From NCBI GenBank assembly GCA_002478265.1, contig DLNC01000015.1, forward strand, positions 19,885 to 83,884: a DNA stretch of 64,000 bases. The letters are read 5' to 3'. Below are positions 3,012 to 31,843 of the stretch, piece by piece (the stretch's first letter is position 1; every line of letters starts with the position of its first letter). The position numbers and the translations under genes were made by a program. Origin of the DNA: Syntrophaceae bacterium UBA7520 (GTDB taxonomy: Bacteria > Desulfobacterota > Syntrophia > Syntrophales > Smithellaceae). The notes beneath the pieces are model-generated. The model had not been told where the DNA came from. It was given only the letters and a program-made list of their open reading frames with translations, and made no database searches.

Positions 3012-4091
3012 GTGATTTACGAATTTTTATATCCTTTACACACAATCTTTTCTTTTTTTAATGTCTTCCGTTACATTACTTTTCGGACGATCTTTGCCTC
3101 TATCACCGCTCTTTTGATTTGTCTTTTTGTTGGGCCCTGGCTGATTCGTAAATTGCAGAGTCTGCAGATCGGCCAGCACATCAGAGACGATGGTCCGAAA
3201 AGCCACCATCTCAAGAAAGGCACGCCCACGATGGGCGGGATATTGATTATCATTGCCGTGGTAATCTCGACTATTCTCTGGGCAAATCTTTCGGTAAATT
3301 ATATCTGGCTGATACTGCTGGTGACAGTTGGCTACGGATTGATCGGATTTGCCGATGATTACCGTAAGCTTACCGGCAAAAGCTCCAAGGGCATATCCGG
3401 CAGGAAGAGACTGGTCGCGGAAATAATCATCGCCCTGTTTGTCAGCATCATCATTTATTTCAAGCCGGGCTTTAACACGCAGATAGCGGTTCCATTTTTT
3501 AAAACAGTCCTGCCTGATCTGGGCTGGGGATATATTCTTCTGGCTACATTTATCATTGTCGGCGCGGCCAATGCCGTAAATCTCACTGACGGGCTTGACG
3601 GCCTGGCCATCGGCCCGGCCACCATTTGCTTTGCCACTTTTGTGTTGTTTGCCTACTTTGCCGGCAATATCAAAGTCGCCTCATACCTGCAGATTCCCTA
3701 TGTCGCCGGATCCGGAGAACTGGCGATTTTCTGCGGCGCGATGGTCGGCGCCGCGCTTGGTTTTTTGTGGTTCAATGCGTATCCGGCGGAAGTTTTCATG
3801 GGCGATGTCGGCTCTCTATCGCTGGGCGGCGCGCTGGGCACGATGGCGATTATTACCAAACAGGAGATACTCTTGGCGATTGTCGGCGGTATTTTCGTCG
3901 TGGAAACTTTTTCTGTTATTTTCCAGGTCGGTTATTTTAAAGTGACCAAAGGAAAGAGAATATTCCGCATGGCGCCGCTGCATCACCATTATGAATTGAA
4001 GGGCTGGCCGGAGCCTAAGGTAATTGTGCGTTTTTGGATAATTTCCATCCTGCTGGCTTTGCTGGCGATCAGTACTTTGAAATTGCGGTAG
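3012..4091 (+). CDS. mraY: phospho-N-acetylmuramoyl-pentapeptide transferase
   Basis: Polytopic membrane protein with MraY motifs (GPKSHxxKxGTPTMGG, [27 protein letters not shown]); GTG start. Confidence 0.95.
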
Positions 4092-4098
4092 GGCGTAA

Positions 4099-5442
4099 AT
4101 GGATTTGAAGAATAAAAAAATATTGGTCTTGGGGGTGGGGAAAACGGGTATTGCCACGGCAAAGTTTCTGGCGGGGCAGGGCGCCAAAATAACGCTGACG
4201 GATGAAAAGCCGTTAAATAACTGGGGCACCGATTTTGAACAAATTGCCCGGGAATCTTGGCTGAAAGCGGCGGCGTTTGATCCCGCTGCCCTGGATGACG
4301 TGACCATGGTTATTCCGTCGCCGGGATTTCCGCCGCACAACGCGCTGCTGCTCGAGGCGTTAAAAAGGAAAATACCAGTGATGAGCGAGATAGAGTTAGC
4401 CTATCGTTTTATTAAAACGCCGCTGATTGCCATAACCGGAACCAACGGAAAAACAACGACCACGACGCTGGTGGGGGAAATTTTGAAAAAATCCGGCAAA
4501 AACGCCTTTGTCGGCGGCAATATAGGCAACCCGCTGATTGAGTACGCGGCAGGCGCGGCCGAGGCCGAAATTGCCGTGGCGGAAATCAGCAGTTTTCAAT
4601 TGCAGTGGGTGGAAGAATTCCATCCCTTCGTGGCGACACTTTTGAATGTAACATCAGACCACATCAACTATCACGGTTCTTTTGAAGCGTATCTTAAGGT
4701 GAAAAGCAGAATATTTGCCAGGCAGACCAAAGATGATTTTGCCGTGCTCAACGCTGACGACCCGGCGCTGCAAGGTTTAATTCCGGATATCCGCGCCAGA
4801 ATAGCGCTGTTCAGCTCGGCCCGGGAATTGCCGGAAGGCATGTTTTTGCGGAATAAGGAGATAATTTTCCAGATGCGCGGCTTCGCGCGTGAAATCTATC
4901 CGCTTTCCATAATTAAACTGCCGGGCCTGCATAATGTGGAGAATGTAATGGCCGCGATCATGGCCGCGCGCTTCTGCGGCATTGAGCAGGAAAGCATAAA
5001 GTCATGCATTGCCGCATTTCGCGGCCTGCCGCACCGGCTGGAATTTGCCGGCGAGAAAAACGCGGTCAAGTTCTATGACGATTCCAAAGGAACTAATGTC
5101 GGCTCGGTCATCCGCGCGCTGGAAACTTTTCCGGCGGCGGTGATTCTGCTTCTCGGCGGCCGTGACAAAAACGGAGATTTTGACGCGCTGAAAACCATTC
5201 TTCCGCGAAAAGTGAAAAAAGTAATTTTATTTGGCGAGGCCAGGGAACGCATCGATTCTCTGATTGGCAGCAGTGTGGAAAAGATAAAGAAGTCAAATCT
5301 GGGCGATGCCATACAGGAAGCATATAAAAATGCCGCGCCCGGCGATATTGTCCTGCTTTCGCCAGGCTGCGCGAGTTTTGATGAATTTCGCGACTACAAG
5401 GAACGCGGCGAATTCTTTAAAAAGGCGGTGAGGAATCTATAA
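4099..5442 (+). CDS. murD: UDP-N-acetylmuramoylalanine--D-glutamate ligase
   Basis: N-terminal Rossmann GVGKTG, Mur ligase ITGTNGKTTTT, dcw position. Confidence 0.93.
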   Translation: MDLKNKKILVLGVGKTGIATAKFLAGQGAKITLTDEKPLNNWGTDFEQIARESWLKAAAFDPAALDDVTMVIPSPGFPPHNALLLEALKRKIPVMSEIELAYRFIKTPLIAITGTNGKTTTTTLVGEILKKSGKNAFVGGNIGNPLIEYAAGAAEAEIAVAEISSFQLQWVEEFHPFVATLLNVTSDHINYHGSFEAYLKVKSRIFARQTKDDFAVLNADDPALQGLIPDIRARIALFSSARELPEGMFLRNKEIIFQMRGFAREIYPLSIIKLPGLHNVENVMAAIMAARFCGIEQESIKSCIAAFRGLPHRLEFAGEKNAVKFYDDSKGTNVGSVIRALETFPAAVILLLGGRDKNGDFDALKTILPRKVKKVILFGEARERIDSLIGSSVEKIKKSNLGDAIQEAYKNAAPGDIVLLSPGCASFDEFRDYKERGEFFKKAVRNL

Positions 5443-6591: not shown

Positions 6592-7668
6592 ATGCGCGTG
6601 ATTATCGCCGGGGGTGGAACAGGAGGGCATTTATTCCCGGGCATTGCCTTGGCGGAAGAATTCCTGAAAAGAAGCGGCGAAGCGAAGATTCTTTTTATCG
6701 GAACCCAAAGGGGCATGGAAGCAAAATTACTGCCGCAACTGGGGTTTGAACTGAAAACAATCGACGTGGAGGGAATTAAGGGCCGGGGGTTGGGCGCGCT
6801 TGTCAAAAGTGTTTATCAGATTCCCGTGAGCATGTGGCAATCGCGCGGGATTATCAAGGAGTTCAAGCCAAACATCGTCATCGGCGTGGGCGGTTACGCT
6901 TCCGGACCGGCGGTTATTGCCGCTTATCTGATGAAGATACCCACGGCCATTGCCGAACAGAACGCTTTGCCCGGATTGACCAACAGAATTTTGGGAAAAT
7001 TCGTGAAAAAAATATTTGTCACTTATCAGCAGACCGCGCGATATTTTCCCCCTGCCAAAGTCATGGTCAGCGGCAATCCGGTGCGCGCCGCTTTTGCCGC
7101 GATCAATAATACGGAAAGAGACAAGAAGGACTGCCGGCAGTTGCTTGTTTTTGGCGGCTCGCAGGGCGCGGAAGCCATCAACCGGGCCATCATCAGGATC
7201 CTGCCGCGGCTGCAAAAAATGAAAAGAAAAATTTGCATTATCCATCAGACCGGAACGAAGCAGGCGGATAAAATCAAGAAAGTATACGAAAAATACGCCA
7301 TGAAGGCGCATGTTCTGCCATTTATTGTGGATATGGTCAAAGCTTACAAAAGCGCCGATTTGATTATCTGCCGTGCGGGCGCGACATCGCTGGCGGAAAT
7401 CACGGCGGCAGGCCGGGCGGCAATTTTGATTCCCTATCCTTACGCGGCCAATGACCATCAGGCAAAAAACGCGCGCGCCATGGCCGAAGCCGGCGCGGCG
7501 GTAGTTCTTTACGAGCACGAACTGTCTGATGGAAAACTTTATGATATCATTGAAGAATTATTGATAGATGAAAAAAAAATCAGGCAGATGGAGGCCAAAG
7601 CGGCCAGCCTGGGTAATATCAAAGCGGCGGCCAATATTGTCGATACCTGCATAAAACTGATGGCCTGA
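6592..7668 (+). CDS. murG: UDP-N-acetylglucosamine--N-acetylmuramyl-(pentapeptide) pyrophosphoryl-undecaprenol GlcNAc transferase
   Basis: GGGTGGHLFPG N-terminal motif, GT28 C-terminal half (FGGSQGA, RAGATSLAE), dcw position. Confidence 0.93.
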   Translation: MRVIIAGGGTGGHLFPGIALAEEFLKRSGEAKILFIGTQRGMEAKLLPQLGFELKTIDVEGIKGRGLGALVKSVYQIPVSMWQSRGIIKEFKPNIVIGVGGYASGPAVIAAYLMKIPTAIAEQNALPGLTNRILGKFVKKIFVTYQQTARYFPPAKVMVSGNPVRAAFAAINNTERDKKDCRQLLVFGGSQGAEAINRAIIRILPRLQKMKRKICIIHQTGTKQADKIKKVYEKYAMKAHVLPFIVDMVKAYKSADLIICRAGATSLAEITAAGRAAILIPYPYAANDHQAKNARAMAEAGAAVVLYEHELSDGKLYDIIEELLIDEKKIRQMEAKAASLGNIKAAANIVDTCIKLMA

Positions 7669-7690
7669 GATAAAGGAAAGAAAAGAAAAA

Positions 7691-9103
7691 ATGGCAGAAG
7701 AAAAACAAAGCGGATTAATGAAGAAAAAAGTCAAGCGGATTCATTTTGTCGGCATCGGCGGCATCGGCATGAGCGGCATTGCCGAGGTTCTTCTGAATCT
7801 GGGCTATGAAATCAGCGGTTCCGACGCGCAGAGTTCGGATACCACCGAACGTTTGAAAAATTTGGGCGCCACCGTGGCCATTGGCCATAATAAAAAAAAT
7901 GTGCGCAACGCCGACGTGGTGGTAATTTCCACAGCAGTGAAAGAAAATAATCCCGAAGTTGTGGAAGCGCATCATAAAAATATTCCTGTGATCCCGCGCG
8001 CGGAAATGCTGGCGGAGCTCCTGAAGATGAAATTTTCCGTCGCCGTATCCGGCAGTCACGGCAAAACAACCACCACGTCCATGATATCCACCGCTTTGGC
8101 CAAAGGCGGCCTGGATCCGACGATGGTTATCGGCGGTAAACTGGCCAGCATCGGCAGCAACGCCCGGCTGGGCGGTGGCGATATTATCGTCGCGGAAGCG
8201 GACGAAAGCGACGGTTCTTTCCTCAAGCTTTCTCCGACCATCGCCATCATCACCAATATCGATCGGGAGCATCTCGATTATTACGCCGGCATCGAAGAAA
8301 TAAAGGACGCTTTTCTCAAATTCGCCAACATCGTCCCTTTTTACGGCAGCACGGTTTTATGCGCGGATAGTGAGCACGTTCGGGAAATTCTGCCGCTGAT
8401 CAAGCGCAAATTTGTCACCTACGGCATAAAATATCCCGCGGACTACATGGCCCGCGATATCAAATTTAGCGCGCATAAAACAACTTATAATCTGTTTTAT
8501 AAAACGGAAAAAGTCGCGGCGATGGAGTTAAAAGTGCCCGGAATGTTTAACGTGTACAATTCTCTGGCCGCGGTGGCGGTATGCCGCGAGCTTGATCTTG
8601 TTTGGATTACCATCAAAGAAGGTCTGAAGGAGTTTACCGGCGTGCAGAGAAGACTCGAGGTAAAAGGCGTTGCCGGGGATATTACGGTAGTCGATGACTA
8701 TGGGCATCATCCCACGGAAATTAAAGAGACGCTGGCCGCCGCGCGTCAGGTCTGGAAGAAAAAACTCATTGTTGTTTTTCAGCCGCACCGGTTCACCAGA
8801 ACCAAGGCGCTTTTCGACGAATTTACCAAGGCGTTCGATGATGCGGATATCCTCATTCTTAACGATATTTATCCGGCCAGTGAAGAGCCGATTGCCGGAA
8901 TTAATTCCGCCGCGCTCTGGGCGGCAATCAAACAGACAGGCCATCCGCGGGTGGAATATATCGCGGACGCGAACGAAACGATAAAGTTTTTACTGGAGAC
9001 GGCAAAACCAAATGACACGGTAATTACTCTGGGCGCCGGAAATGTTTACAGAACCGGGGAAGCTTTTTTGAAAAAGCTGGAGGCCAGGGATAAAAGAAAA
9101 TAA
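7691..9103 (+). CDS. murC: UDP-N-acetylmuramate--L-alanine ligase
   Basis: HFVGIGGIGMSGIAE N-terminus and Mur ligase GSHGKTTTT motif. Confidence 0.93.
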   Translation: MAEEKQSGLMKKKVKRIHFVGIGGIGMSGIAEVLLNLGYEISGSDAQSSDTTERLKNLGATVAIGHNKKNVRNADVVVISTAVKENNPEVVEAHHKNIPVIPRAEMLAELLKMKFSVAVSGSHGKTTTTSMISTALAKGGLDPTMVIGGKLASIGSNARLGGGDIIVAEADESDGSFLKLSPTIAIITNIDREHLDYYAGIEEIKDAFLKFANIVPFYGSTVLCADSEHVREILPLIKRKFVTYGIKYPADYMARDIKFSAHKTTYNLFYKTEKVAAMELKVPGMFNVYNSLAAVAVCRELDLVWITIKEGLKEFTGVQRRLEVKGVAGDITVVDDYGHHPTEIKETLAAARQVWKKKLIVVFQPHRFTRTKALFDEFTKAFDDADILILNDIYPASEEPIAGINSAALWAAIKQTGHPRVEYIADANETIKFLLETAKPNDTVITLGAGNVYRTGEAFLKKLEARDKRK

Positions 9104-17454: not shown

Positions 17455-17483
17455 GGAACTTTCCGGGGACCTCTTTTGTCTAA
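17455..17483 (+). promoter_or_regulatory. ECF (RpoE-type) promoter-like motif upstream of the VIT-vWA gene
   Basis: GGAACTT (17455-17461), N16-17 spacer, then GTCTAA (17478-17483). Lies about 34 nt upstream of the ATG at 17517, which has an AAGGAGG SD. Confidence 0.4.
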
Positions 17484-17516: not shown

Positions 17517-19835
17517 ATGAAAAAATTAAAAAATTGGCTGGTTTTATTAAGTGCTTTGCTGATGTTATTTTCGGGGTCGCAGGCGTTTGCCACAGGCATG
17601 AAAGAATCCGATGACCGCACACTTTCCCCTTATTTTTTTATCCCTGGCAATGATCCCGCCACGGACAGATTGCCGCTTAAGGCAACTTCGGCCTCTGTGA
17701 CTATCTCCGGCGTCATTGCCGATGTGCTGGTCACGCAGGTTTACAAGAACGAGGGCAAAAAACCGCTGGAGGCAATCTATATTTTCCCCGCTTCCACCCG
17801 CACAGCGGTTTACAGCATGAAAATGACCATCGGCAAACGAATTATCGAGGCGCAGATTAAAAAGCGCGAAGATGCCAAAAAAGATTATGAGCAGGCAAAA
17901 CAAGAGGGTAAAAGAGCGTCTCTTCTGGAGCAGCAGCGTCCGAATGTTTTTCAGATGAACGTGGCCAACATCATGCCCGGCGATGAAATCAAGGTAGAAA
18001 TGAAATACACGGAACTGCTGGTGCCCACCGACAGAGTCTATGAATTTGTTTATCCCACGGTGGTGGGGCCCAGATATTCGAACGCCAAAGCGGGTGATGT
18101 GCCGCCTTCCGAACATTGGGTGGCGAATCCCTACCTGCGCCAGGGGGAACTGTCTACGACTACATTTGATATAAACGTGGCAATTAACGCGGGCATGCCG
18201 ATTAAAGATTTGACCTGTAATTCGCACAAAATAAATACACTCTTCAGCGCGCCGGATGCCGCAAAAATATCTCTGGATAAATCTGAGAAAAACGGTGGCA
18301 ACCGCGATTATATTTTACGCTACCGGCTGGACGGAGATAAAATCCAGACCGGTCTGCTTCTATCTCAAGGCGAAAAAGAAAATTTCTTTTTGCTGATGCT
18401 CCAGCCGCCCAAGCGCATCAAGAAAGCTGATATTCCCGGCCGCGAATATATCTTTATCGTAGATGTGTCCGGCTCCATGTATGGTTTTCCGCTGGATATC
18501 TCGAAAAAATTAATATCCAATCTTATCGGCAAGCTGCGCGCCACGGATAAATTTAATGTTCTCCTTTTCTCCGGCGGCTCCACGCTTTTGGCCGAAGAAT
18601 CTCTGCCGGCAACTAAGGAAAATATTCAAAAAGCAATCAATGTAATCGAACAGCAAAGAGGCGGCGGGGGGACGGAGCTTCTGCCCGCGCTCAAACGCGC
18701 TTTGTCTTTGAAAAAAGATAAAGATTTTTCCCGAACAGTGGTTATCGTGACCGACGGCTATGTAACGGTTGAAGAAGAGGCATTTGACCTGATTCGTAAC
18801 AATTTAGGCAATGCCAATATGTTCGCTTTCGGCATCGGCTCCAGCGTCAACCGCCATATAATCGAAGGCATGGCGCGTGTCGGCATGGGCGAACCGTTTG
18901 TTATTACCAGACAGGATCAGGCGGCAGAGCAGGCGGAAAGTTTCCGCAAGATGATTCAGACGCCGGTTTTGACGCAGGCCAAAATAAGTTTCCAGGGATT
19001 TAACGCCTACGATGTTGAACCAATATCCATTCCCGATGTGCTGGCCGAGCGTCCGGTGCTGATTTTCGGCAAATGGCGAGGCAAGCTCGAAGGGAAGATT
19101 AAATTAACCGGCATAGCGGGTGACGCCAAATACACGCAAACGATTAATGTGGCCGATTATCAGCCCGCCGCTGAAAATGCCGTTTTGAAATATCTCTGGG
19201 CGCGTCACCGCATCACGATTTTGTCTGATTACAATAAACTAAGAAGCGACGATAAGCGCGTTAAGGAAGTTACCGATCTGGGGCTTACGTATAATCTGCT
19301 CACCGCCTATACATCGTTTGTGGCCGTGGATAATGAAGTGGTGAATAAAGACGGTAAAGTCACCACGGTGAAGCAGCCTCTGCCTTTGCCGGAAGGTGTT
19401 TCGGACTTTGCTGTGGGCGGAAACGGCATGTACGCGGCATCGCCGATGATGGTCAAGGGCATGGCTATAACGAGAGGTAAAGAAGAAAGCAAAGATGCAT
19501 CACTCACGGAGCAGGAAGTTGACAAAAAAGGCAATTCAAAAATCCAAATCACAGATGTAGTTACAGACAAAGGCTTAACCAAAGATGAAATTCGTAAAGT
19601 TGCCCAGGCGCATATTGTGGATATTGAAAAATGTTTTGCCGCAAGTAACTGGCAGGGCAATAGTACAATTAATTTAACTATCAATCCTGATGGCACGGTG
19701 AAAAAAGTAGAAGTTATTGCTAGCGGGATAGATGCAAAGATTAAAAAATGTGTCAGTGAACAGGTGAAAAAGTGGATTTTCTCTGTTACAGCAAATAGGC
19801 AAGATATTAAAGTAACAATAATATTAAAGAATTAG
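17517..19835 (+). CDS. secreted VIT domain + von Willebrand factor A domain protein with TonB-C/AgmX-PglI-like C-terminal module
   Basis: Signal peptide MKKLKNWLVLLSALLMLFSGSQAFA. VIT-like N-terminus (LEAIYIFPASTRTAVYSMKMTIG). vWA MIDAS DVSGSM plus VIVTDGY. C-terminal ~90 aa with two Cys (IEKCF ... KKCVSEQVKKWIF). Confidence 0.85.
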   Translation: MKKLKNWLVLLSALLMLFSGSQAFATGMKESDDRTLSPYFFIPGNDPATDRLPLKATSASVTISGVIADVLVTQVYKNEGKKPLEAIYIFPASTRTAVYSMKMTIGKRIIEAQIKKREDAKKDYEQAKQEGKRASLLEQQRPNVFQMNVANIMPGDEIKVEMKYTELLVPTDRVYEFVYPTVVGPRYSNAKAGDVPPSEHWVANPYLRQGELSTTTFDINVAINAGMPIKDLTCNSHKINTLFSAPDAAKISLDKSEKNGGNRDYILRYRLDGDKIQTGLLLSQGEKENFFLLMLQPPKRIKKADIPGREYIFIVDVSGSMYGFPLDISKKLISNLIGKLRATDKFNVLLFSGGSTLLAEESLPATKENIQKAINVIEQQRGGGGTELLPALKRALSLKKDKDFSRTVVIVTDGYVTVEEEAFDLIRNNLGNANMFAFGIGSSVNRHIIEGMARVGMGEPFVITRQDQAAEQAESFRKMIQTPVLTQAKISFQGFNAYDVEPISIPDVLAERPVLIFGKWRGKLEGKIKLTGIAGDAKYTQTINVADYQPAAENAVLKYLWARHRITILSDYNKLRSDDKRVKEVTDLGLTYNLLTAYTSFVAVDNEVVNKDGKVTTVKQPLPLPEGVSDFAVGGNGMYAASPMMVKGMAITRGKEESKDASLTEQEVDKKGNSKIQITDVVTDKGLTKDEIRKVAQAHIVDIEKCFAASNWQGNSTINLTINPDGTVKKVEVIASGIDAKIKKCVSEQVKKWIFSVTANRQDIKVTIILKN

Positions 19836-19844
19836 CTGGAAATT

Positions 19845-19905
19845 CAAGGTCAGGTCTTGGGATATCACGTATCTTATATTTCAAGACCTGACCTTGTCTT
19901 TTGTT
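19845..19905 (+). terminator. rho-independent terminator after the VIT-vWA gene
   Basis: Perfect 15-bp inverted repeat caaggtcaggtcttg (19845-19859) / caagacctgaccttg (19882-19896), followed by a T-rich tract tcttttgtt. Confidence 0.65.
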
Positions 19906-19971
19906 GACCCTGTCTTTTGTGTAGATTTATTTTTATTAACAAAAAAATGAATATAACTAAATATTGTGATA

Positions 19972-20132
19972 AATATTTATGCTCATAAGCTGGGAAAAAG
20001 GGGAACAAAAGCGTTGCTGTGGATGCCTAATACAATAGATAAAAAAACGCAGGTGGGAGAAGATGAGGATATTGAGTATGTCCCGGCCTGCCCAAACAGC
20101 GACGTAAGCGTTTTTTAGATATTGGTAAAAAC
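19972..20132 (+). pseudogene. degenerate duplicate of the 5' end of the ECF sigma factor gene (remnant)
   Basis: 19998-20132 aligns without gaps to 20941-21075, about 106/135 identical by hand count. The homologous frame reads KRGTKALLWMPNTIDKK..EDEDIEYVPAC.. and stops at 20115-20117. Confidence 0.55.
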
Positions 20133-20156
20133 AGAGCTTATTAATTTGGAGCGATA

Positions 20157-20561
20157 TTATACCGTAAACAAAGCCTCGAAATTTCGGGGATTAATAATGT
20201 TAATTTCTTTATAGCGTTTTAATATCAGTAAATCTTCATCTCCGGTCACGATATAATGTGCTTCGGCAGCGACCGCGCAGGAAATAATGAAATCATCACT
20301 GGGATCACGGCAGATACTCTTTATCGGGTCGGGTTTATGAATTATTTCCGCGGCAGCTTCTTCCACAATGTTTGTGATTTCGGAAATATCCGAAGATGGT
20401 AGTTTGAATTTATTTTTAAGGACTTTTTTGAATTCCCGAATAATATCATCGCATAGGATAAGGTTAAAATAGCGCTTGCGCGCGCGGGTAAGAAGGCCGG
20501 AACAAACACCCTCCGTCAGAAAAGCCGCAATCAGAACATTTGTATCAAATACCGTCTTCAC
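20157..20561 (-). CDS. PIN-domain toxin (type II TA system)
   Basis: 134 aa with N-terminal VFDTNVLI acidic motif and a later TGDEDLL motif; 4-bp overlap with the upstream antitoxin. Confidence 0.85.
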   Translation of the reverse strand: MKTVFDTNVLIAAFLTEGVCSGLLTRARKRYFNLILCDDIIREFKKVLKNKFKLPSSDISEITNIVEEAAAEIIHKPDPIKSICRDPSDDFIISCAVAAEAHYIVTGDEDLLILKRYKEINIINPRNFEALFTV

Positions 20562-20776
20562 GATATTTCCTTGAAAACATCTTCATCGGTAACGAAACCC
20601 GCTGCTTTTGCCTTGCGGCTCAGCCTTTTTTTCATGCGGCGAAATCTGTTTTCCCACAAAAATTCTGCGAGCGACTCTTTTACGATATCGCTTTTGTTTC
20701 TTCCTGTTTCGCTGGCCAGGACTTCCAGTTCACTGGCAAGTTTTTTGGGTAAACTTACAGACAAAACACTTCTCAT
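20558..20776 (-). CDS. ribbon-helix-helix (CopG-like) antitoxin
   Basis: 72 aa; N-terminal beta-strand/helix pattern LSVSLPKKLASELEVLASETGRNKSDIVKESL; SD ggaggtg before the ATG; overlaps the PIN gene. Confidence 0.75.
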   Translation of the reverse strand: MRSVLSVSLPKKLASELEVLASETGRNKSDIVKESLAEFLWENRFRRMKKRLSRKAKAAGFVTDEDVFKEIS

Positions 20777-20788
20777 GTTGCACCTCCG

Positions 20789-20845
20789 ACACTACAATAC
20801 ACTACATGTATTAAAAATACAAGTGTGATTCCAGCAATAATATCG
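20789..20845 (-). promoter_or_regulatory. putative TA promoter with direct-repeat operator
   Basis: Minus strand reads TTGTAT-N17-TATTGT. The octamer TGTAGTGT occurs twice 10 bp apart (plus-strand acactaca at 20789-20796 and 20799-20806) and overlaps the -10. Confidence 0.3.
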
Positions 20846-20908
20846 GATAATGACTTGATTTAACCCATATAATATCAAGGCGTTAGATATGGCGAATATT
20901 TATATGGT

Positions 20909-21586
20909 ATGTTAAAAGAAATTTGGCGTACAGAAACATTAAGGGGAACAAAAGCGTTGCTGTGGATATCTAATACAATAGATAAAGTCAGGCAGAGGGT
21001 TGAGGATGAGGATATCGAGTATGTCCGGGCCTGTCAGAAGGGCGATACCAGCGCTTTTGAAGTATTGGTGGAAAGGCATCAGAAAAAAATGATCAATATT
21101 TCCTACCGGATGCTGGGCGATTATGATGATGCCTGCGATGTCACACAGGAGGCGTTTATTGCGGCATATAAAGCAATAAAGAAATTTAAGGGAGAGGCAA
21201 AATTTTCCACCTGGCTCTACAGAATAGTTATTAACTATGCCAAAAATCGCCTGCAGCAATTGCAAATTGCGGCAAAGCGAGAAGGTGTTTGCCTTGACGA
21301 TGTGGAAGAGATAAAAACAAAAGAGGCGTGGAGTCAGCCCGCGTCAGCAGGCGCTAATCCCGGCGTGCGGTTGGAAAAAAAGGAAAGGGAAGAACAGGTG
21401 CAAAAATGCATGTCATCCCTTGATGAAGAATTTAAAGAAGTGTTGGTTTTGCGCGATATAGAGGGATTGTCCTACGGGGAGATAAAGGATATTTTGAAAA
21501 TTCCGGAAGGGACGGTTAAATCCCGTCTGGCCCGCGCGCGTGGCACGCTTAAGGAGTGCCTGATAAAAGTTATGGGTGAATTATGA
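20909..21586 (+). CDS. ECF (group IV) RNA polymerase sigma-70 factor
   Basis: Region 2 (FEVLVERHQKKMINISYRMLGDYDDACDVTQEAFIAAY, STWLYRIVINYAKN) and region 4.2 HTH (LSYGEIKDILKIPEGTVKSRLARAR). The N-terminal ~35 aa extension makes the start uncertain. Confidence 0.9.
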   Translation: MLKEIWRTETLRGTKALLWISNTIDKVRQRVEDEDIEYVRACQKGDTSAFEVLVERHQKKMINISYRMLGDYDDACDVTQEAFIAAYKAIKKFKGEAKFSTWLYRIVINYAKNRLQQLQIAAKREGVCLDDVEEIKTKEAWSQPASAGANPGVRLEKKEREEQVQKCMSSLDEEFKEVLVLRDIEGLSYGEIKDILKIPEGTVKSRLARARGTLKECLIKVMGEL

Positions 21587-29517: not shown

Positions 29518-30030
29518 ATGTCCAGTGAGGCGGAAATCAAAAGCATCAACGATGATATTATCAGGCGCTTTGCAATAATCGAAAGCCGTCTGAAGGATTG
29601 CTCCGGTATAACCGCTTTTTTTGAGACACTGCTGGAGGGAGCGGAACAACAGTTTAAAATTCCCTTTGTCTGGCTGAGCTTGATAAATGAGGAAAAGAAT
29701 AATTCGTTAATCGCTAAAATCAAGGCGTCGCCAAAATTAAGAGAAAGACTAAATCTGGTTGAAAGAAATTTATGGGAAAATCTCGTTGTGCAAAGCGCCA
29801 AACCGCTTCTGGTTAACAGCAATCTGAAACCATACTTTAAATTATTTCCTGACGGGAAAAAATACTTCATCAAATCGATGGCGCTTGTGCCGCTGCAGAT
29901 AAACGGCGATATAATCGGTTGTTGGGTAAACGCGGACGCCAGGCAGGAACGTTATCAGCCGGCGATGCACACGGATATTTTGCAGAATTTTGCCGAATTT
30001 GTCAGCCGGCGTTTGTCAGAGTTTTCCTGA
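29518..30030 (+). CDS. DUF484-like (GAF-like fold) protein
   Basis: Pattern SMALVPLQINGDIIGCWVNADARQERYQPAMHTDILQNFAEFVSRRL resembles the DUF484/YigA family as I recall it. ATG at 29518 has a GAGG SD at 9 nt. Confidence 0.5.
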   Translation: MSSEAEIKSINDDIIRRFAIIESRLKDCSGITAFFETLLEGAEQQFKIPFVWLSLINEEKNNSLIAKIKASPKLRERLNLVERNLWENLVVQSAKPLLVNSNLKPYFKLFPDGKKYFIKSMALVPLQINGDIIGCWVNADARQERYQPAMHTDILQNFAEFVSRRLSEFS

Positions 30031-30592: not shown

Positions 30593-31843
30593 TTAATAAC
30601 GCTTCCCGGAGGCACGGTCTTTTTTCAGGGTCAGAATAATCACGCAGGTGAACGCCAGGATAGCGGTATTGATAAGCCAGAGGTATTTGTAAGAGCCGAA
30701 GGTGTCGTAAATGATGCCTCCCAGTATCGGTCCCAGACTGCCGATGAAACCCACAAAAAAAGTCAAAAGACCGTAAATCGAGCCGAGAACATGTCGCCCA
30801 AAGCGGTCGACGGTCAGTATCGGCAATATCGGGGCCAGGCATCCGTAACCAAAACCGTAGATGACGGCAAACAGGTAGAGACGGCCGATGCTGTCGGTGT
30901 AATTAAGAATAATCATACCGGCCAGCAGAAAACATATACCTAAAAAATAGGCGTATTTGGGATCGCGCAGACGGTCGGAAAACCAGCCGAAAAAAAACTG
31001 ACCGATAAAACCGGTAATGCTTACCGCCGCCAGAGAGCTTGCCGCCGCCACGCTGTCAATTTTATTGGCTATGGCAAAAGCCACCTGATGCACAAAGACG
31101 GACATAATCACCATGACCAGCAGGCTCTGGCTGAGGGCGATTGTCCAGAAGCGGGAATCGGCAAAAAGGCTTTTGAGCGCAATTTTTGATACAATCGGCG
31201 CAGCGCATTCCTGGCTGCCAATTGAAATTTTATCGCCGTCGGGCAGAAGCCCGTAATCCTCAGGCCGGGTTTTACGCATCAGAAATTGAGAAACAGCAAC
31301 GCCGACAATTAAAACAATCATTCCTAATATAAACATGCCGACGCGCCAGCTGAAATATTTTCCCAAAAATCCCGCGAGCGGTGTCAGTGTCATTGTGCCG
31401 AAACTGATGCCCATGGTGGCGACTCCCAAGGCCAGGCCGCGCATCTTGATGAACCACTTTCCTACGGAGGAACTGCAAATGACGACGCCCATTCCGGTCG
31501 CGCCCATGCCCACGAGCAGGCCGTAAGTCAGATAAAGAGAGGCAGGTGAGTTGACAAAGCCGGTCAGCATAAATCCGGTGGCGGCGCAGATTGCGCCCGC
31601 GGTCATAATCCAGCGCGGCGCGATGCGATCGAGCATGCGTCCGACAAATATCGCGCCAATTGAATAGACAAGCATATTGATCGTCGCGGCCAGAGATATG
31701 ACCGAGCGGGACCAGCCGTGCTCCAGATAAAGAGGTTTGACGAAAATGCCAAAACAATAGCGGGCGCCGTAATTTACCGCCATAACCAGGAAAGCGCCCG
31801 CTACAATATACCAACCCCAGAATATATCGCCTTTTTTCCGCAT
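30593..31843 (-). CDS. MFS transporter (oxalate/formate antiporter-like subfamily)
   Basis: 12-TM protein with N-terminal WYIVAGAFLVMAVNYGARYCFGIF and the VGRMLDRIAPRW loop motif. Confidence 0.85.
   Translation of the reverse strand: MRKKGDIFWGWYIVAGAFLVMAVNYGARYCFGIFVKPLYLEHGWSRSVISLAATINMLVYSIGAIFVGRMLDRIAPRWIMTAGAICAATGFMLTGFVNSPASLYLTYGLLVGMGATGMGVVICSSSVGKWFIKMRGLALGVATMGISFGTMTLTPLAGFLGKYFSWRVGMFILGMIVLIVGVAVSQFLMRKTRPEDYGLLPDGDKISIGSQECAAPIVSKIALKSLFADSRFWTIALSQSLLVMVIMSVFVHQVAFAIANKIDSVAAASSLAAVSITGFIGQFFFGWFSDRLRDPKYAYFLGICFLLAGMIILNYTDSIGRLYLFAVIYGFGYGCLAPILPILTVDRFGRHVLGSIYGLLTFFVGFIGSLGPILGGIIYDTFGSYKYLWLINTAILAFTCVIILTLKKDRASGKRY

Follow-up and report, generated by a model that had tools for sequence, protein, structure and literature searches.

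How does a toxin–antitoxin (TA) gene pair come to lie between two copies of the beginning of one and the same gene, and what follows from this for the gene concerned? The question is raised by a locus in a 64-kb window (the whole stretch of DNA analysed) of contig DLNC01000015.1 from Syntrophaceae bacterium UBA7520 (Smithellaceae), in which a PIN toxin gene and an RHH antitoxin gene stand between a broken and a working 5′ end of a gene for an extracytoplasmic function (ECF) sigma factor. The first-pass annotation of the window had described the arrangement as a TA cassette bracketed by a decayed duplicate of the sigma gene 5′ end and had suggested an insertion or recombination scar. With the help of homologous contigs we read the locus as an old insertion-duplication of 943 bp that affects the 5′ end of an ECF sigma gene of the RpoE-like type, and we give this reading a probability of about three in four. 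The locus is a clean recombination scar left by a known kind of event and not a new type of system. The window-equivalent contigs and those of relatives are labelled L001 to L045, and positions given without a contig label follow the numbering of the window. The coordinates of all features are collected in Table 1.

Two copies of the sigma gene 5′ end

The left copy of the repeat (copy A, 19998-20132) and the right copy (copy B, 20941-21075) were compared without gaps and are identical at 106 of 135 positions, so that the hand count of about 106 in the first-pass annotation was exact; its translations of both copies were likewise correct. The best core pairs 19998-20090 with 20941-21033 (80/93, 86%). 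Blastn placed the similarity beyond chance, with an E-value of 1.1e-25 in the pairwise comparison and of 1.4e-23 against the whole window. An independent repeat search recovered the pair as 134 nt of 79% identity at a spacing of 943, and no third copy was found in the 64-kb window using blastn. The genes between the copies were confirmed to be those of the PIN toxin and the RHH antitoxin using the Pfam and NCBIfam models.

Copy A contains a Shine–Dalgarno (SD) sequence GGGG (20000-20003), a TTG (20014), an ATG (20023), the motif GGAAC...CCTAA (20002-20030) and a premature TAG (20116-20118). The SD of copy B lies at 20943-20946, its TTG at 20957 and its motif GGAAC...TCTAA at 20945-20973, and the ATG of the family is mutated to ATA (20966-20968). 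What is duplicated is the ribosome-binding site, the start codon and the first ~37-40 codons of the sigma gene, and the insert between the copies consists of a PIN_3/RHH cassette of ~760 bp and a 33-nt filler. The left copy has the native upstream region and is cut at ~+129; the right copy is without the native upstream region and runs into the whole gene. Since contigs from two other sequencing runs (L003, SRR5325125; L004, SRR2132206) each hold the VIT gene, copy A, the TA pair and the sigma gene in the same layout on one contig, with 99.9-100% identity to the window, misassembly can be excluded.

Copy A as the original 5′ end

Relatives for comparison were collected by sigma protein identity. 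The genome scan provided L017 (79%), L018 (76%) and L019 and L020 (58%; Syntrophaceae), and further relatives came from metagenome scans and from look-ups of the exact protein: L024/L043 (87%), L044 (87%), L027, which is the same strain as L018, and L029 (54%). No TA pair was found 5′ of the sigma gene in L017, L018/L027, L024/L043 and L044, and the sigma gene is intact in all of them, which bears out the earlier suggestion of an insertion or recombination scar. When these relatives were examined for an independent gene at the position of copy A, the intact sigma gene itself was found there.

In L018 and L024 the ~75 nt directly 5′ of the intact sigma gene align with ~19925-19997, the region 5′ of copy A, and not with the region 5′ of copy B. 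In the ungapped comparison with the upstream region of L018, copy A matched at 74/100 positions and copy B at 37/100, which is background. Over the proximal 40 nt, copy A reached z=14-16 over shuffles against both L018 and L024, and copy B stayed at z~0 against any native upstream region. Inspection of the upstream regions of L044 and L017 by eye showed no more than the distal core motif ATGAAT...AATATTGT(R)GTAAAT in common, and their proximal 40 nt were not significantly similar to that of copy A (z -0.3 and 0.3). Since its upstream region matches the region 5′ of the intact sigma gene in the TA-less L018 and L024, copy A is identified by these alignments as the original 5′ end, still on its native upstream region, and copy B as the one brought in or created by the insertion. 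The first-pass description of copy A as a decayed duplicate is therefore to be divided: copy A is decayed, as seen from the premature TAG and from its nonsynonymous divergence (dN), but it is the original 5′ end and not a duplicate. The displacement of the sigma upstream region, which had also been proposed, agrees with the matches to L018, the region having stayed with copy A.

One candidate source for the upstream flank of copy B was rejected: the 33-nt filler was compared with the native proximal upstream region of the L044 type and gave z=-0.1 against shuffles.

Decay of copy A and selection on copy B

The differences between the copies were polarised over 133 nt from the SD with L018 as reference, and adding L024 gave the same picture. 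The 17 changes specific to copy A, which include the TAG at 20116-20118, are spread over the three codon positions as 6/6/5, and seven of the nine changes specific to copy B fall on the third position. Over codons 11-34, dN was 0.28-0.42 between copy A and the live copies and 0.02-0.16 among the live copies. Because of the TAG stop, the even spread of changes and the raised dN, copy A is a neutrally decayed pseudogene fragment; copy B is under purifying selection.

The probable start codon of the live gene is the TTG at 20957, which is in frame, lies 10 nt past the SD GGGG and has the same position in five of the six copies compared; L040 has an in-frame TTG one codon further downstream. The sigma homologues are mostly called at 206-209 aa. 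The in-frame GTG at 19966 was considered as the real start, which would make the flank of copy A coding, and was rejected: all five differences between copy A and L018 in the stretch fall on codon positions 1-2, L044 has an in-frame TAA, and the lengths of the homologues also speak against it.

Ten of the ~17 substitutions specific to copy A are clustered within 19 nt (20093-20111) near the cassette junction, and this cluster may reflect junction-associated mutagenesis rather than uniform decay.

The PIN/RHH cassette and its limits

The toxin scored 71 bits with PF13470 (PIN_3; cut-off 27) and 63.3 bits with TIGR00305 (cut-off 29.15), and the antitoxin, whose gene overlaps the toxin start by 4 nt (20558-20561), scored 34.7 bits with RHH_1 (cut-off 20.5). 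Both are kept as functional genes by strong purifying selection, with omega values against L035 and L040 of 0.14-0.15 for PIN and 0.06-0.10 for RHH. PIN homologues are plentiful at 72-77% identity, a few are closer, and in all they number in the hundreds and have diverse genomic surroundings. No support was obtained for an origin of the cassette from a phage or plasmid, there being no close PIN match in the phage collection and all plasmid homologues being below 36% identity.

The limits of the cassette were derived from L035 (GCA_002402545.1), in which a PIN gene of 85% identity stands beside an RHH gene and nucleotide homology to the window (83%) covers 20151-20907. On the antitoxin side of the L035 cassette a hairpin is followed by MaoC/acyl-CoA dehydrogenase genes, and on the toxin side three unknown genes are followed by a VIT-vWA gene 80% identical to that of the window. 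The L035 cassette lacks an adjoining sigma gene as well as flanking direct repeats of more than 23 nt, so that the idea that insertion of the cassette always makes flanking duplications was rejected. In L040-L042, where PIN is 89% identical, the order of sigma 5′ end, 164-nt spacer, RHH and PIN is that of the window at 87-90% nucleotide identity; past the PIN 3′ end these contigs have an open reading frame (ORF) of 48 aa in place of copy A. The neighbouring genes in L035, L040 and L001 were considered as mobile-element cargo, for which neither Pfam nor PHROG gave support.

With the cassette placed at ~20151-20907, no more than ~25 nt separate it from the end of copy A and 33 nt from the start of copy B. 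Because of the comparison with the L035 cassette flank, the sigma-derived part of copy A probably ends at ~20126, and 20127-20133 (AAAAACA) may already be cassette flank. For the filler at 20908-20940, homology was found only with the corresponding stretch of L040 (z=3.8), and with no native sigma upstream region.

Upstream of the antitoxin gene we noted a candidate TA promoter with the SD GGAGGTGC (20780-20787), a -10 element TATTGT (20799-20794) and a -35 element TTGTAT (20822-20817), together with a candidate operator of GTAGTGT x2 repeats and the palindrome TACATGTA. The candidate promoter/operator block 20790-20823 is invariant in the window, L040, L041 and L035. A second conserved block, TTTAA.C...TAATATCAA...TTAGATATGG..AATATTTA.ATGG, which lies at the end of the cassette nearest to the antitoxin gene, is shared by the three cassette contexts, among them that of L035, in which it is followed by no sigma gene.

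Age and origin of the insertion

Synonymous divergence (dS) between the window and L040 was ~0.3 for the TA genes and copy B, and between the window and L035 it was ~0.64-0.76. At third positions copies A and B differ at 12/39 sites, versus 6-8/39 between orthologous live copies. Since the TA-sigma junction is common to the L040 lineage at dS~0.3, the event is old and not recent; by these distances its age is roughly that of the radiation of these lineages, and it predates the split of the window and L040.

The structure of the left and the right copy is the expected product of a 5′-end fragment that recombines once, and because of this we propose a single recombination, by which DNA carrying the TA cassette and a sigma 5′ end would have been joined to the resident sigma gene. 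One crossover would have occurred in conserved sigma sequence at or past ~21075 and one illegitimate join at ~20126-20133. This would correspond to homology-facilitated illegitimate recombination of linear DNA or, equivalently, to a Campbell-type single crossover of a circular intermediate, with survival only of those products that retained an intact sigma gene. The inner boundary of the repeat at ~21075 is also the place where the highly conserved coding sequence of region 2 begins and where a boundary falls in the sigma gene, which is mosaic: its first 133 nt are 87% identical to L018 and 59% to L017, and the remainder is closer to L017. The contigs L025, L026 and L045 of relatives start at the window equivalents of 21066, 21040 and 21075. 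This suggests ~21040-21075 as a recurrent boundary of recombination or variation.

Several points weigh against this reading. The left junction at ~20126-20133 shares only a few bases, so that microhomology is minimal and uncertain; no donor molecule was found, and the 33-nt filler matched no native sigma upstream source; the mechanism is read from its end product only. The TA pair of L035 lies within 2.4 kb of a VIT-vWA gene, and L035 may descend from the same insertion, which would weaken the argument on the cassette boundaries. If the event predates the splits of L024, L044 and L018, losses of the cassette are required, which recombination between A and B could bring about. In the quartet of A, B, L024 and L018, three sites favour A+B and three favour A+L018/B+L024, a count that fits an intragenomic duplication as well as an incoming different allele.

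We regard it as unlikely that a larger integrative element, which targeted the sigma 5′ end and brought a replacement for it, left the repeats as attL/attR-like remnants, the rest of the element having been deleted later and the addictive TA pair being the cargo that survived longest. The geometry would suit such an element: the copy borne by it would run on into the live gene, with the displaced original fragment at the far end. The three unknown genes between PIN and VIT in L035 and the 48-aa ORF past PIN in L040 could be residual cargo, and L035 has a weak remnant resembling the native promoter (ATGAATAT..AATATTGTGA) at ~7660-7720, ~140 nt past the VIT stop. However, this remnant is not significant (z=1.7), no integrase or recombinase was found near the cassette in the window, L035, L040 and L001, and the neighbouring genes have no PHROG or Pfam matches of the mobile-element type. 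Moreover, close PIN homologues are absent from phages, plasmid matches all remain below 36%, and integration into gene 5′ ends is unusual. The statement of the first-pass annotation that no transposase or integrase is adjacent was borne out for the window using Pfam.

A history in two steps, in which the sigma 5′ region was duplicated in tandem by unequal crossing-over or slippage and a TA pair was later inserted independently between the copies, would give the same end product and would account for the three sites that group A with B against L024 and L018. We consider it quite improbable, since it needs two rare events at one spot, leaves the 33-nt filler and the loss of the native upstream region from copy B unexplained by simple tandem duplication, in which both would have to be part of the repeat unit, and is contradicted by the three other sites; furthermore, no TA-less tandem duplicate was seen in the relatives examined (L017, L018/L027, L024/L043, L044). 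Insertion of an insertion sequence (IS) or transposon with target-site duplication, chance similarity and misassembly together have a probability that we regard as practically nil. It is true that direct repeats flank the insert and that an IS256-family transposase stands beside copy A in sister strains, but a 135-bp repeat at 79% identity is unlike an identical target-site duplication of 2-15 bp, there are no terminal inverted repeats and no transposase at the cassette, and the IS256-family element, found in some strains only, stands outside the repeat at a distance of 16 nt upstream of copy A. Chance and misassembly are contradicted by the blastn E-value of 1e-25 and by the agreement of three independent assemblies. 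IS-type insertion, chance and misassembly are therefore excluded.

Ancestral neighbourhood and later rearrangements

In the window the TA pair separates the VIT-vWA gene from the live sigma gene, as the first-pass annotation had stated, and in L029 a VIT-vWA homologue (69% nucleotide identity) stands directly 5′ of the sigma/anti-sigma pair. Because of this arrangement in L029, the adjacency of VIT and sigma is old and ancestral, and the region 5′ of the sigma promoter is a hot spot of rearrangement: the closest TA-less relatives have other genes 5′ of the native sigma promoter. The expectation that VIT abuts sigma wherever the TA pair is missing accordingly holds in the distant L029 and fails in the closest TA-less relatives, whose upstream contexts have been rearranged independently.

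A further rearrangement was found in sister strains. Most contigs with an identical sigma protein (L001, L002, L005-L008 and L016) diverge from the window at 19983/19984. In L001 (~3680-5073) a ~1.4-kb IS256-family element encoding a 416-aa Transposase_mut protein is located 16 nt upstream of copy A. In these strains it replaces everything 5′ of 19984, so that the native promoter and the adjacency to VIT are gone, and beyond it are unrelated genes for proteins of 402 aa and 690 aa. Lying outside the repeat, the IS256-family insertion is a separate, later event. A 416-aa ORF of the window (30593-31843) was considered as a copy of the transposase of L001 and rejected, no similarity having been found.

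Separately, a Syntrophus metagenome-assembled genome (L019, 8589-9193, minus strand) has another TA-like pair ~0.8 kb upstream of the orthologous sigma gene. Its proteins, judged by eye from the translations, are RelE/HigB-like (96 aa) and HTH antitoxin-like (103 aa).

Promoter displacement and a possible present role of copy A

The live sigma/anti-sigma operon would have been cut off by the insertion from direct contact with its native sigma-70-type upstream promoter, which is now 943 bp away with the convergently transcribed TA operon in between. Sigma would then depend on a promoter within the 164-nt spacer between RHH and sigma, where the conserved block 20860-20907 is a candidate for an outward-facing one, or on transcripts from the old promoter that read through the TA genes in antisense direction. 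The ECF-type motif GGAAC-N19-TCTAA is still present at the live sigma gene itself. No intrinsic terminator was predicted on either strand between 19700 and 21200. A structured RNA or terminator at the junction of copy A and PIN was also considered and rejected (fold z=-0.68, no terminator-like site).

The decay of copy A is uneven, and in a way that bears on its present role. The 97 nt between -53 and +43 hold 2 states specific to copy A and the 89 nt between +44 and +132 hold 18 (Fisher p=6e-5), a contrast that was noticed post hoc. At sites that are invariant in the live copies, copy A has changed at 1/42 (upstream, with L018 and L024 agreeing), 1/38 and 13/64. In the 53-nt upstream alignment, counted by hand, copy A has one lineage-specific change, versus four in L018 and six in L024, both of which have working promoters. 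The promoter, leader and start region of copy A have thus remained intact while the remainder has decayed. This could be due to continued use of the promoter, to gene conversion from copy B, to a patch acquired recently by recombination, or to mutations that arose in a cluster near the junction when the event took place.

From this contrast one may tentatively read copy A and its promoter as a retained regulatory module, in which the native promoter and possibly the ECF-type motif would still fire and produce a transcript antisense to PIN/RHH and/or reading through to sigma, as the lack of a predicted terminator between copy A and sigma would allow. The promoter-proximal part would then be maintained by selection. 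This reading agrees with the insertion-duplication as the origin and differs only in what it says of present function; we hold it to be possible, at well below even odds. The strains that bear the IS256-family element, which are the commoner sister arrangement, lack that promoter and yet have an identical sigma protein, and the single change of copy A within the first 44 nt strikes the invariant T of the -10-like element TGTCTAA. Gene conversion from copy B, or a recent patch from a TA-less relative, could equally have kept the proximal part young, and besides the post hoc nature of the contrast the RNA fold is not significant.

A stronger version, which we consider doubtful, is that the stump of copy A is a regulatory device, its promoter and ECF-type motif driving stress-dependent transcription antisense to PIN/RHH and onward into sigma/anti-sigma. 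If true, a regulatory stump would couple an envelope-stress sigma factor to toxin–antitoxin control. The 135-bp repeats would moreover allow RecA-mediated excision that restores the fusion of promoter and gene, and some of the TA-less relatives could be revertants. A related oddity of the family is the overlap of the cognate motif with the sigma factor's own start codon in more than 100 homologues, by which sigma-dependent transcripts might encode anti-sigma and not sigma; this would amount to a built-in negative feedback.

The ECF-type promoter motif and a candidate regulon

The pattern GGAAC-N19-TCTAA has two matches in the window versus 0.41 expected, and both are at this locus, one upstream of VIT-vWA and one at the start of the live sigma gene. 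The motif is kept 5′ of the VIT genes in L035 (~10236-10208, minus strand) and L029 (~280-310), with a variable spacer and followed in both by a strong SD and an ATG. The sigma genes of the clade start with GGAACAA(A/T)-N13-(A/G)TGTCTAATA, seen in L017-L020, L024, L028, L033, L040, L043 and L044. The distance between the elements does not vary, the sequence of the spacer does so in relatives of 48-58% identity, and the overall length is that of the motif at VIT. The repeat begins 2 nt before the motif, so that both copies carry it, and on the -10 side GTCTAA has been changed to GCCTAA in copy A and to ATCTAA in copy B.

We take GGAAC...TCTAA to resemble the sigma-E consensus of Escherichia coli. 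Because of this likeness, the presence of the motif at both VIT-vWA and sigma, and the RpoE-like match of the protein, GGAAC-N19-TCTAA is probably the cognate promoter of the adjacent sigma factor and VIT-vWA probably a member of its regulon. Two relaxed matches at 29643 and 32096 were considered as further members and rejected, both being inside ORFs.

Across the family (>100 homologues), the motif of the sigma gene overlaps with SD and start codon, and a transcript starting from it would have no in-frame ATG, GTG or TTG before codon ~37. The stretch under the motif is coding: more than 100 homologues have (RGTKA)LLWMSNI... there, interrupted by no stop and varying in length only in frame. 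An ordinary autoregulatory promoter followed by its start codon is unsupported in the clade, there being no start before codon ~37. Transcripts from this motif may instead express only the anti-sigma gene, the motif being in that case an anti-sigma-only feedback promoter.

Comparison with known systems

The TA pair belongs to type II, with a PIN toxin (VapC-like, PIN_3/TIGR00305) and an RHH antitoxin (CopG-type). It shares with other such pairs the antitoxin-first order, the 4-nt overlap and domain scores above the cut-offs, as well as the upstream region rich in palindromes and repeats, the purifying selection and the many genomic contexts. The proteins are ordinary; what is unusual is their location between the old and the new sigma 5′ end and convergent with the old sigma promoter.

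Integration that restores a gene end is known from the prophages e14 and 21 at the 3′ end of icd in E. coli and from islands at tRNA genes. The locus resembles these in that a diverged version of the target end was brought in, the gene is intact and the original end was left as a pseudogene fragment on the far side. It differs in that the 5′ and not the 3′ end is concerned, the native promoter was displaced, the insert is only ~0.8 kb long and no integrase was found. Insertion-duplications also arise by a Campbell-type single crossover or by homology-facilitated illegitimate recombination, the latter described for natural transformation. Here as there, the left copy follows the native upstream region and breaks off at its 3′ end, and the right copy lacks that region and runs into the complete gene, but the present repeats are 21% diverged, the crossover points are unmappable and microhomology at the junction is uncertain.

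The nearest published analogue found is in Microcystis aeruginosa PCC 7806, where a ParE/ParD-like TA pair beside the orthocaspase gene MaOC1 has two direct repeats, which are identical, 152 bp long and intergenic and contain inverted repeats (PMC7935541). As here, a chromosomal TA pair is fenced by direct repeats of ~150 bp near a host gene. Unlike here, the repeats are not the duplicated end of a host gene, and there is no pair of pseudogene and live gene. The sigma/anti-sigma operon, finally, is like sigma-E (RpoE) operons in its best NCBIfam match, its co-transcribed anti-sigma gene and its GGAAC...TCTAA motif. It differs from them in a score below the RpoE cut-off, in an anti-sigma factor of the zf-HC2 type instead of RseA and in the overlap of the motif with SD and start codon.

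How chromosomal TA cassettes that bring no recombinase along can move is an old question, for which this locus provides a well-resolved natural example, since the original end, the working duplicate end, the limits of the cassette, TA-less relatives and a rough date are available together. The route it illustrates is that of a TA pair that would have travelled with a piece of a neighbouring gene and been fixed because this piece repairs the interrupted gene. An ECF sigma operon would thereby have been rewired, its native promoter moved 943 bp away and convergent with the TA operon, and the locus also exposes the candidate regulon link to VIT-vWA and the overlap of promoter motif and start codon. 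Current views are not overturned; the locus is of value as a clear case and for the testable hypotheses on regulation that it raises.

Features of the locus

The sigma protein scored 66.6 bits with Sigma70_r2, 50.4 bits with r4_2 and 115 bits with TIGR02937 (cut-off 42.9). With sigma-2 and sigma-4 as its only domains and a length of ~200 aa it is an ECF sigma factor. Its best NCBIfam match, the RpoE equivalog TIGR02939, reached 152.3 bits and is below the cut-off of 236.15; the protein is RpoE-like and no RpoE orthologue. The anti-sigma gene starts at 21583 and overlaps the sigma stop codon, as in a co-transcribed pair.

Table 1. Coordinates of the features of the locus in the 64-kb window.
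Feature	Position	Strand	Evidence or remark
ECF-type motif GGAACTT-N17-TCTAA, ~34 nt upstream of the VIT-vWA ATG	17455..17483	+	Pattern search
VIT + vWA gene, C-terminus like TonB_C/AgmX tail	17517..19835	+	Pfam VIT 1.2e-34, VWA_3 9e-18; NCBIfam
Inverted repeat 3′ of the VIT stop, terminator-like hairpin, 26-nt arms 85% complementary	19840..19901		Repeat search
Native promoter/leader region of sigma, still joined to copy A	19925..19997	+	Conserved core ATGAATATAACTAAATATTGTGATAAAT at 19947-19974
Copy A, original sigma 5′ end by alignment, now a pseudogene fragment	19998..20132	+	
TA cassette	20151..20907	-	Nucleotide homology (83%) with L035; blastn, boundary inspection, alignment
PIN_3-family toxin gene, 134 aa	20157..20561	-	Pfam PF13470 1.9e-19; TIGR00305
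RHH (CopG-type) antitoxin gene, 72 aa	20558..20776	-	Pfam PF01402 (RHH_1) 1.5e-08
Candidate TA promoter/operator	20780..20830	-	By eye; below promoter-scan threshold
Second conserved block, antitoxin-proximal cassette end	20860..20907		Candidate outward-facing sigma promoter
33-nt filler between cassette and copy B	20908..20940	+	Holds in-frame ATG 20909
Copy B, working sigma 5′ end	20941..21075	+	
ECF (RpoE-like) sigma gene, probable TTG start, 209 aa	20957..21586 (longest ORF from 20909)	+	Pfam Sigma70_r2, r4_2, ECF
zf-HC2 (ZAS-type) membrane anti-sigma gene, overlaps sigma stop codon	21583..22539	+	Pfam zf-HC2 8.7e-11, DUF2275; NCBIfam anti-sigma

A tandem 16-nt direct repeat, TGACC(T/C)TGTCTTTTGT, was further noted at 19889-19920, where it overlaps the 3′ arm of the terminator-like hairpin behind the VIT gene and sits just 5′ of the native sigma promoter region.

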